This document shows, one piece after another, positions 61,925 through 62,540 of a stretch of 64,000 nucleotides of DNA (positions within the stretch are counted from its first letter, which is position 1; each line of letters begins with the position of its first letter). The translations under genes and the position numbers were made by a program. The notes beneath the pieces were generated by a model that had not been told where the DNA came from, searched no databases, and saw only the letters and a program-made list of their open reading frames with translations. Origin of the DNA: Escherichia coli. GTDB taxonomy: Bacteria; Pseudomonadota; Gammaproteobacteria; Enterobacterales; Enterobacteriaceae. The stretch lies in NCBI RefSeq assembly GCF_003334335.1, contig NZ_QOWQ01000012.1. One strand, written 5' to 3'.

Positions 61925-62540
61925 GATTTACTAAAGGCTGCAACTGCTTCGCCATCCAGTCGGCAATAAACGGCTGGGCGTCGCGGTTGGGATGAATACC
62001 GTCATCCTGCATCCATTGTGGCTTGAGGTAGACCTCTTCCATAAAAAAGGGCAGCAGCGGAACATCAAACTCTTTGGCGAGTTTGGGGTAAATGGCGCTA
62101 AAGGCTTCATTATAACGGCGACCATAGTTTGCAGGCAGACGTATTTGCATTAACAATGGTTCAGCGTTGGCGGCTTTGACATCCTGCAAAATCTGGCGCA
62201 GCGTTTGCTCGGTTTGCTGTGGCTGAAAACCACGCAAACCGTCATTGCCGCCCAGTTCAACCAGCACCCAACGCGGCTGATGCTGTTTCAGCAGAGCCGG
62301 AAGGCGCGCCAGTCCTTGTTGCGAGGTGTCGCCGCTGATGCTGGCATTAACTACCGACGTTTTACTCTGCCACTTATCATTCAACAAGGCAGGCCAGGCC
62401 GCGCTAGCAGACATTCGATACCCGGCGCTCAGGCTATCACCCAGAATCAATAACGTGTCCGCTGCGGCGGCACGGAAGGTTAACAGGACCAGGAACAGGA
62501 AGGGCAAATGCCAGCGGAAAACATTGTTGAAGTTCATCAT
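61914..62540 (-). CDS. tesA: Periplasmic acyl-CoA thioesterase I / lysophospholipase L1 (SGNH hydrolase)
   Basis: 208-aa protein MMNFNNVFRWHLPFLFLVLLTFRAAAADTLLILGDSLSAGY (GDSL motif) from ATG at 62540; the ORF track starts 10 codons upstream. Confidence 0.94.
   Translation of the reverse strand: MMNFNNVFRWHLPFLFLVLLTFRAAAADTLLILGDSLSAGYRMSASAAWPALLNDKWQSKTSVVNASISGDTSQQGLARLPALLKQHQPRWVLVELGGNDGLRGFQPQQTEQTLRQILQDVKAANAEPLLMQIRLPANYGRRYNEAFSAIYPKLAKEFDVPLLPFFMEEVYLKPQWMQDDGIHPNRDAQPFIADWMAKQLQPLVNHDS

Follow-up and report, generated by a model that had tools for sequence, protein, structure and literature searches.

Do the divergent genes tesA and ybbA of Escherichia coli truly share their 5′ coding ends, and if so, does the expression of one bear on that of the other? 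An earlier note on the 64-kb stretch of DNA analyzed here (the window) had proposed that the two reading frames overlap by about 33 bp, and the coordinates proved right. The ybbA coding sequence, which encodes an ABC transporter ATPase of 228 aa, occupies window positions 62508–63194 (+) in the open reading frame list and in the annotation. The tesA coding sequence, as annotated in K-12, occupies 61914–62540 (−) and encodes a product of 208 aa, with the mature protein running from A27. The head-to-head coding overlap of 33 bp (62508–62540) can be read directly from the sequence, and the same 33 bp are present in the MG1655 annotation (tesA 519139–519765, −; ybbA 519733–520419, +), where position 519733 corresponds by coordinate match to window 62508. 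PGAP RefSeq records begin tesA at the second of two consecutive ATG codons (207 aa), giving an overlap of 30 bp. The locus was found in 5419 of 5426 complete E. coli genomes. The codons of the two genes stand in exact antisense register, with tesA H11 (CAT) complementing the ybbA ATG; consequently, ybbA codon position 3 pairs with tesA codon position 1.

Under the K-12 annotation, tesA/ybbA is the only divergent pair with overlapping coding sequences in the window, and the remaining divergent pairs are separated by gaps of 69–217 bp. As in other head-to-head overlapping bacterial gene pairs, the two genes lie on opposite strands and share their 5′ coding ends. Among the orientation classes of gene overlap the head-to-head one is the rarest, and many cases are mis-annotated starts; the tesA/ybbA overlap, in contrast to such cases, survives both comparative and transcription-start checks. 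It is in our judgement highly probable that tesA and ybbA are both genuine genes, that their 5′ coding ends overlap head-to-head and that this overlap is old. The overlap as such is already known, from the annotation, from a published excludon map and from the paper describing the YbbAP-TesA complex. Both frames encode real, expressed proteins, since YbbA and mature TesA match solved structures (9GE6–8, 1IVN and others).

For ybbA, the earlier note had chosen the only in-frame ATG, and this choice is well founded. The ATG at 62508 is invariant in all 81 sequences of the comparison set, which consists of the window and loci from 80 Enterobacteriaceae species. No earlier start is possible because an in-frame TAA lies nine codons upstream (62481–62483). 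The next in-frame ATG, GTG or TTG is a GTG at V42, directly ahead of the Walker A motif, and a start so far downstream would cost the protein its conserved first beta-strand. From MPAEN onward, YbbA is identical to the YbbA of PDB entries 9GE6/7/8, and according to these solved structures the full-length protein from MPAEN is functional. The ybbA ATG is served by a Shine-Dalgarno sequence, AGGAAGGG (62497–62504, +), located inside tesA signal-peptide codons 13–15 (K-12 numbering), and the anti-Shine-Dalgarno duplex energy at this ATG is −7.0 kcal/mol. The third positions of the tesA codons are kept at this site, and the ybbA ribosome-binding site is carried by tesA codons 12–19.

The tesA frame is open from 62570 and offers four candidate starts on the minus strand. 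These are ATG 62570 (218 aa, 63-bp overlap with ybbA, Shine-Dalgarno pairing of −8.4 kcal/mol), ATG 62540 (208 aa, 33-bp overlap, the K-12 annotation), ATG 62537 (207 aa, 30-bp overlap, the PGAP call) and TTG 62507 (197 aa, zero overlap, −1.5 kcal/mol); the ATG pair 62540/62537 has a Shine-Dalgarno pairing of −3.2 kcal/mol. From 62540 the frame reads ATG ATG AAC TTC (MMNFNNVFRW...). The second of these ATGs (62537) is invariant in 81/81 sequences, whereas the first is ACG in 16 of the 81, a change coupled to His11 → Arg in YbbA. Given one variable and one invariant codon, the conserved version of the overlap is 30 bp (62508–62537), and comparative evidence argues strongly for the second ATG as the tesA start. 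The earlier note had started tesA at the ATG opening MMNFNNVFRW, and thus had the right start region, but the conserved codon lies 3 nt downstream.

Solved TesA structures (1IVN and others) begin with ADTLL at residue 27. Because the mature protein begins at Ala27, initiation must take place before the signal peptide's hydrophobic core; the exact translation start is unreadable from the mature protein because the signal peptide has been removed. Peptides of YbbA and of TesA are both absent from the TRAINSPOTTER N-terminomics supplements, and the N-terminomics paper reports that signal-peptide precursors usually escape detection. The text of a Ribo-RET preprint mentions neither gene. Automatic gene callers vary in their choice of the tesA start, giving products of 194/197, 204/207/208 or 218 aa.

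The junction is under unusual constraint. Among the 81 sequences, 25 of the 33 columns of the overlap are invariant. Third codon positions were compared in the 79 species with an intact ybbA, and in the body of the gene they are near saturation (mean entropy 1.12, mean pairwise difference 41%). Mean third-position entropy falls to 0.24 in codons 1–19 and to 0.58 in codons 20–34; the 5′ end is the lowest-entropy stretch of 210 sliding windows (Mann-Whitney p = 4e-9), and the synonymous constraint is confined to codons 1–34. The frozen sites comprise the overlap (+1 to +33), the stretch of tesA leader adjoining the start codon (+34 to +56, with near-invariance from +36 to +54), the tesA −10 element and spacer (+70 to +89) and the tesA −35 element (+96 to +102), and the sites at +57 to +69, +90, +93 and +105 vary freely. 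Synonymous constraint in tesA is likewise confined to its 5′ end, codons 1–18, which contain the overlap and the ybbA Shine-Dalgarno region. With both ATGs invariant in every sequence and the synonymous sites of both genes frozen across the junction, the overlap is, as judged by sequence comparison, more than chance. The first ~100 bp of ybbA encode the YbbA N-terminus and, on the opposite strand, carry TesA signal-peptide residues 1–10/11 together with the tesA leader and promoter. The conserved dual-use block as a whole extends over 62494–62609 (ybbA −14 to +102) and takes in the ribosome-binding region and N-terminal coding end of each gene as well as the leader and promoter of tesA. Premature ybbA stops occur in Leclercia adecarboxylata NCTC13032 (codon 60) and in one Citrobacter amalonaticus assembly (codon 29) (L027 and L042), and could reflect assembly error or a pseudogene.

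The earlier note had placed the promoter and ribosome-binding site of tesA inside ybbA, and published 5′ ends agree. In the supplement of Kim et al. 2012 (PMC3415461), transcription of tesA starts at U00096.2 519021 (−), a site supported by 45 reads that leaves a 32-nt leader. Converted to window coordinates and matched to the printed 51-nt flank, this start, which comes from that one dataset, falls at 62572, in ybbA codon 22 and upstream of the conserved tesA start codon at 62537. The 32-nt untranslated leader (62541–62572, −) lies in ybbA codons 12–22 and contains a weak Shine-Dalgarno-like GGA (62543–62545, −). Geometry relative to the mapped start places the core promoter at 62580–62608 (−), in ybbA codons 25–34. 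It consists of a −35 hexamer TTGACA (62603–62608, −; 6/6 match), a 17-bp spacer and a −10 hexamer GAGGAT (62580–62585, −; 3/6 match, with A2 and T6 present), with 7 nt between the latter and the start at 62572. This arrangement, within the hexamer spacing of 16–18 bp and the distance to the start of 5–9 bp, is that of a predicted sigma-70 promoter. The pattern TTGACA-17-RAGGAT is present in 81/82 loci, including one Serratia-like, one Erwiniaceae and one Pectobacterium locus, with the −10 hexamer being AAGGAT in 56 and GAGGAT in 25.

A generic promoter scan of 62100–63000, which required at least 4/6 matches per hexamer, detected no promoter; the tesA promoter was missed because its −10 hexamer matches at only three positions. 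Inspection by eye revealed no convincing match to a FadR-like site in the tesA leader or to sigma-E, sigma-32 or sigma-54 motifs in the promoter. RNA folding gave no unusual structure for the tesA leader and start (z = +0.93) or for the ybbA start region (z = −0.72), and an Rfam search at E ≤ 1 over 61800–63300 returned no known RNA family. Taken together, the folding and Rfam results do not support a riboswitch or other structured leader.

Transcription toward ybbA is of a different character. The 5′ ends reported in this direction are weak and scattered over 61719–62353 (+), at 61719, 61939, 62121, 62166 and 62353, and all are antisense to tesA or ybbO. In the available portion of the Cappable-seq data, plus-strand starts at 518168, 518388 and 518615 correspond to window 61719, 61939 and 62166; their relative read scores of 1.6–2.5 are barely above the cut-off, and the same portion lists no plus-strand start between 518615 and the ybbA ATG. 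The Kim 2012 supplement (PMC3415461) lists starts for ybbA at 518570 and 518802 (window 62121 and 62353), with two reads each, and the starts in the two datasets differ. The SMRT-Cappable-seq supplements contain no tesA/ybbA entry. A conserved ybbA promoter was sought as a dip in synonymous-site variation in tesA, and no dip was found beyond codons 1–18. The ybbAP operon thus appears to be read from weak, scattered starts located 155–790 nt upstream, inside tesA and ybbO, which would give ybbAP a long leader antisense to most of the tesA mRNA. The earlier note had also placed the ybbA control signals inside tesA, as is indeed the case for the Shine-Dalgarno sequence in codons 13–15; every mapped plus-strand 5′ end upstream of ybbA falls in tesA or ybbO. 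A further weak start with three reads, at window 63041 (+) (v2 519490) in the 3′ part of ybbA, is assigned to ybbP in the Kim 2012 supplement. The orthologue table there pairs tesA/ybbA with KPN_00472/KPN_00473, for which the portion of the supplement covered lists no transcription start.

The antisense transcription suggested by the earlier note is evident in data on p19-captured double-stranded RNA (PMC7373196). In the supplement of that study, the reads assigned to tesA in six datasets number 182, 237, 2396, 1589, 1841 and 1690, compared with 9–25 for ybbO and 11–86 for ybbA, and tesA double-stranded RNA is 10–100× that of its neighbours. Most E. coli genes yield some double-stranded RNA, and a level of 100 RPM is reached by only 13.5% of genes; tesA is well above it (PMC7373196). 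Paired 21–22-nt RNAs extend through tesA (v2 518494–518954, window 62045–62505), and when these data are placed on the window, a 21-nt duplex at 62485–62505 falls on the ybbA ribosome-binding site. The RNAs of tesA and ybbA pair in vivo and are cut to ~21-nt duplexes of the RNase III type. In bulk RNA-seq, tesA and ybbA are expressed at similar low levels (PMC7373196), and in what appears to be a table of sense and antisense RNA-seq values of the same study, provisionally so read, tesA antisense values of 18–49 are as high as the sense values of 27–30. The main text of the study does not discuss tesA.

The tesA-ybbA pair is also one of 16 divergent excludons of E. coli MG1655 reported by ExcludonFinder and is present in at least 50% of 58 transcriptomes (PMC12288877). 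As in other divergent excludons, which were first named in Listeria (PMC12288877), divergent neighbours have transcripts that overlap at their 5′ ends (here from 62572 for tesA and, by the published starts, from 61719–62353 in the ybbA direction), with a long leader antisense to the other gene and, in the published p19 data (PMC7373196), double-stranded RNA of the RNase III type. Unlike in divergent excludons generally, the overlap at tesA-ybbA includes coding sequence and not merely untranslated regions. Overlapping divergent operons of the asd-yhgN type (PMC7373196) offer a second parallel, in that mRNA 5′ ends overlap and ~21-nt duplexes arise there. At tesA, however, the duplexes are not restricted to a short 5′ overlap but span much of the coding sequence, which implies that the ybbA leader is long.

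The overlap is not strain-specific, as it is found across 80 Enterobacteriaceae species and in Serratia-like, Erwiniaceae and Pectobacterium loci. The TesA N-terminus (M)MNFKNVFRWH, which mirrors YbbA MPAEN..EVHH, occurs in most of the Yersiniaceae, Hafniaceae, Pectobacteriaceae and Erwiniaceae sequences examined, including most sequences from Yersinia, Serratia, Rahnella, Hafnia, Dickeya, Musicola, Sodalis, Erwinia and Pantoea. A variant, MNFKNI(F/I)FRH, is found in the Budviciaceae (Budvicia, Pragia and Leminorella), where Budvicia is represented by a TesA protein without a located contig (P0362). In Winslowiella the two genes share 30 bp, in a Serratia-like metagenome locus 33 bp and in Pectobacterium 51–78 bp. 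In Pectobacterium quasiaquaticum (L095:1441–1640), a 45-nt insertion at the junction is read on both strands; the ancestral ybbA ATG is gone, leaving a new ATG 15 codons upstream as the sole start, and the tesA promoter is unchanged despite the longer overlap. The 30-bp overlap is conserved across the Enterobacterales, and amounts to 33 bp if E. coli uses the first ATG.

Beyond this order, distant TesA homologues (41–53% identity) are still paired divergently with an ABC ATPase gene. In Vibrio (L084:2995–3005) and Alcanivoracaceae (L091:450–458), the two starts share the palindrome CATG, a 2-nt head-to-head overlap. The starts abut directly in the L088 lineage (CATCATATG, 0 bp), and a gap of 25–55 bp separates them in Kangiellaceae and one other lineage. 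With such tight spacing, promoters must lie inside coding sequence in these relatives as well. By this distribution the tight head-to-head pairing is ancient, and the 30-bp overlap appears to be an extension by which, throughout the Enterobacterales, the TesA signal peptide reaches into ybbA with its N-terminal region.

YbbAP and TesA form a 2:1:1 complex (YbbA2-YbbP-TesA), as described in a 2025 paper (PMC12646458) that also notes the partial overlap of the tesA-ybbO operon with ybbA-ybbP and suggests co-regulation. The face-to-face arrangement could tie together the expression of two operons whose products meet in one complex. Polymerases transcribing ybbAP would pass through the tesA promoter, and vice versa, with collision at the tesA promoter as a possible outcome, and an RNA duplex covering both ribosome-binding sites would invite RNase III. 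The effect is more likely a trimming or balancing of expression than the on/off switch of an excludon. Mild reciprocal damping or balancing is favoured because the products are partners, and the shared 2:1:1 complex argues against strict either/or expression. Such expression, by which excludons are defined, is unlikely for subunits of one complex, and the similar bulk RNA levels indicate that tesA and ybbA are not mutually exclusive. Mutual interference between the two genes, which the earlier note had thought possible, is something we too can only infer; the literature yielded no experiment in which changing one transcript alters the other.

A real overlap need not be a regulatory one. It is quite possible, if on balance doubtful, that the overlap is functionally neutral, a frozen by-product of extreme gene crowding and start-codon drift. 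Conservation would then follow only from the coding of two proteins, a promoter and two ribosome-binding sites, and the double-stranded RNA would be harmless noise. The tight divergent pairing of tesA with an ABC ATPase gene has been kept from the Enterobacterales to Vibrio, Alcanivoracaceae and Kangiellaceae, whereas the length of the overlap varies by lineage (2, 0, 30, 33 and 51–78 bp, or a 25–55 bp gap); the gap in some close-packed relatives suggests that coding overlap may be a tolerated by-product of crowding, and signal peptides are permissive as to the sequence of their N-terminal regions. Double-stranded RNA at some level is common to most E. coli genes and the two genes are expressed together in bulk, but tesA double-stranded RNA is well over the 100 RPM attained by just 13.5% of genes (PMC7373196), and TesA and YbbAP are physical partners (PMC12646458). 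None of the points against neutrality proves regulation.

A stronger proposal is that the junction is a selected dosage-coupling device, in which facing transcription and RNA pairing make the ybbAP and tesA mRNAs titrate each other. This we consider unlikely. If it were true, the ratio of hydrolase to transporter would be held near the 1:1 needed by YbbA2-YbbP-TesA, and an excludon architecture would have been reused for balancing the subunits of one machine rather than for either/or switching. The excludon concept would be widened if the overlap balances partners, which is a conjecture at present.

The overlap itself could be questioned through the tesA start. It is very improbable that the overlap is an annotation artefact, with tesA starting at TTG 62507 (Leu12), abutting the ybbA ATG, and only promoters and leaders overlapping. 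Several automatic gene calls use this TTG (the 197-aa and 194-aa entries and KPN_00472, 594 bp), and the abutting or 2-nt-overlapping starts of distant relatives mean that its position may be ancestral. In about six Citrobacter loci, however, a TGG (Trp) codon stands in its place, and several other loci lack it, whereas the second ATG is invariant; the TTG is also without Shine-Dalgarno pairing (−1.5 kcal/mol). A start at this position would also drop R9, the sole arginine of the signal-peptide N-terminal region, leaving no positive charge ahead of the hydrophobic core. Moreover, the mapped 5′ end of the tesA mRNA is 65 nt upstream, and three AUGs come before the TTG. Residues 2–11 of the tesA frame are kept order-wide, although dual coding with ybbA could alone account for that.

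It is hardly credible that tesA starts upstream at ATG 62570, in which case the precursor (MLPLTDGLLKMMNF...) would have 218 aa and the overlap 63 bp: the codon has the best Shine-Dalgarno sequence of all candidates (GGAG, −8.4 kcal/mol, 6-nt spacing), is matched by TesA of 218–220 aa in many metagenome gene calls and is ATG, GTG or TTG in 73/81 sequences, but the mapped transcription start at 62572 is only 2 nt upstream, so that the GGAG is not on the mRNA; an NTG arises automatically as the complement of a ybbA His/Gln codon (CAN); the codon is CTG in eight sequences; a stop lies a few codons upstream in the tesA frame of some loci (e.g., L011, L030 and L058); the nearby ybbA synonymous sites +57 to +69 vary freely; and, being near the mRNA 5′ end and unconserved, ATG 62570 is probably unused as a tesA start.

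With a conserved coding overlap running from the ybbA ATG to the second tesA ATG, a stretch of ~115 bp accommodates the N-termini of two proteins, the ribosome-binding sites of both genes, and one leader with its promoter, and has been kept across a bacterial order. Other Type VII ABC systems (MacAB, LolCDE and FtsEX-EnvC) resemble YbbAP-TesA (PMC12646458) in the co-location of transporter and partner genes. The partner gene there usually either belongs to the transporter operon or is unlinked, whereas tesA is on the opposite strand with control regions interleaved with those of the transporter. Added here to the known overlap are the second ATG as the conserved tesA start, the mapping of the tesA promoter and leader within ybbA by synonymous-site constraint, and the order-wide conservation of the overlap, with variant arrangements in Pectobacterium and distant relatives. 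In practical terms, 5′ knock-outs, tags or codon changes in tesA or ybbA affect the control region of the other gene. For example, deletion of ybbA removes the tesA promoter, which matters for studies of the TesA-YbbAP complex, and in fatty-acid strains with leaderless TesA the ybbA ribosome-binding site is altered if the change is made at the native locus.

Close packing is also seen at the other ends of the two genes. Same-strand overlaps are an 11-nt one between the tesA stop and the ybbO start (window 61914–61924) and an ATGA shared by the ybbA stop and the ybbP start (63191–63194). The last few ybbA codons likewise have frozen synonymous sites. Elsewhere in the window, cnoX (ybbN; 60200–61090, −) has a further in-frame ATG upstream, use of which would lengthen the annotated 284-aa protein by 12 codons, and hemH and aes overlap tail-to-tail by 4 nt (41789–41792). 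The acrA-acrR pair, also among the 16 published divergent excludons, is separated by a 141-bp gap (28394–28536). Rfam matches at the gathering score (1496–1591, 19231–19327, 36131–36195, 44222–44299, 49979–50062 and 51360–51538) are sraA, 4.5S RNA (ffs), the dnaX frameshift element, three naRNA4/REP-type repeats and sroB/chiX.
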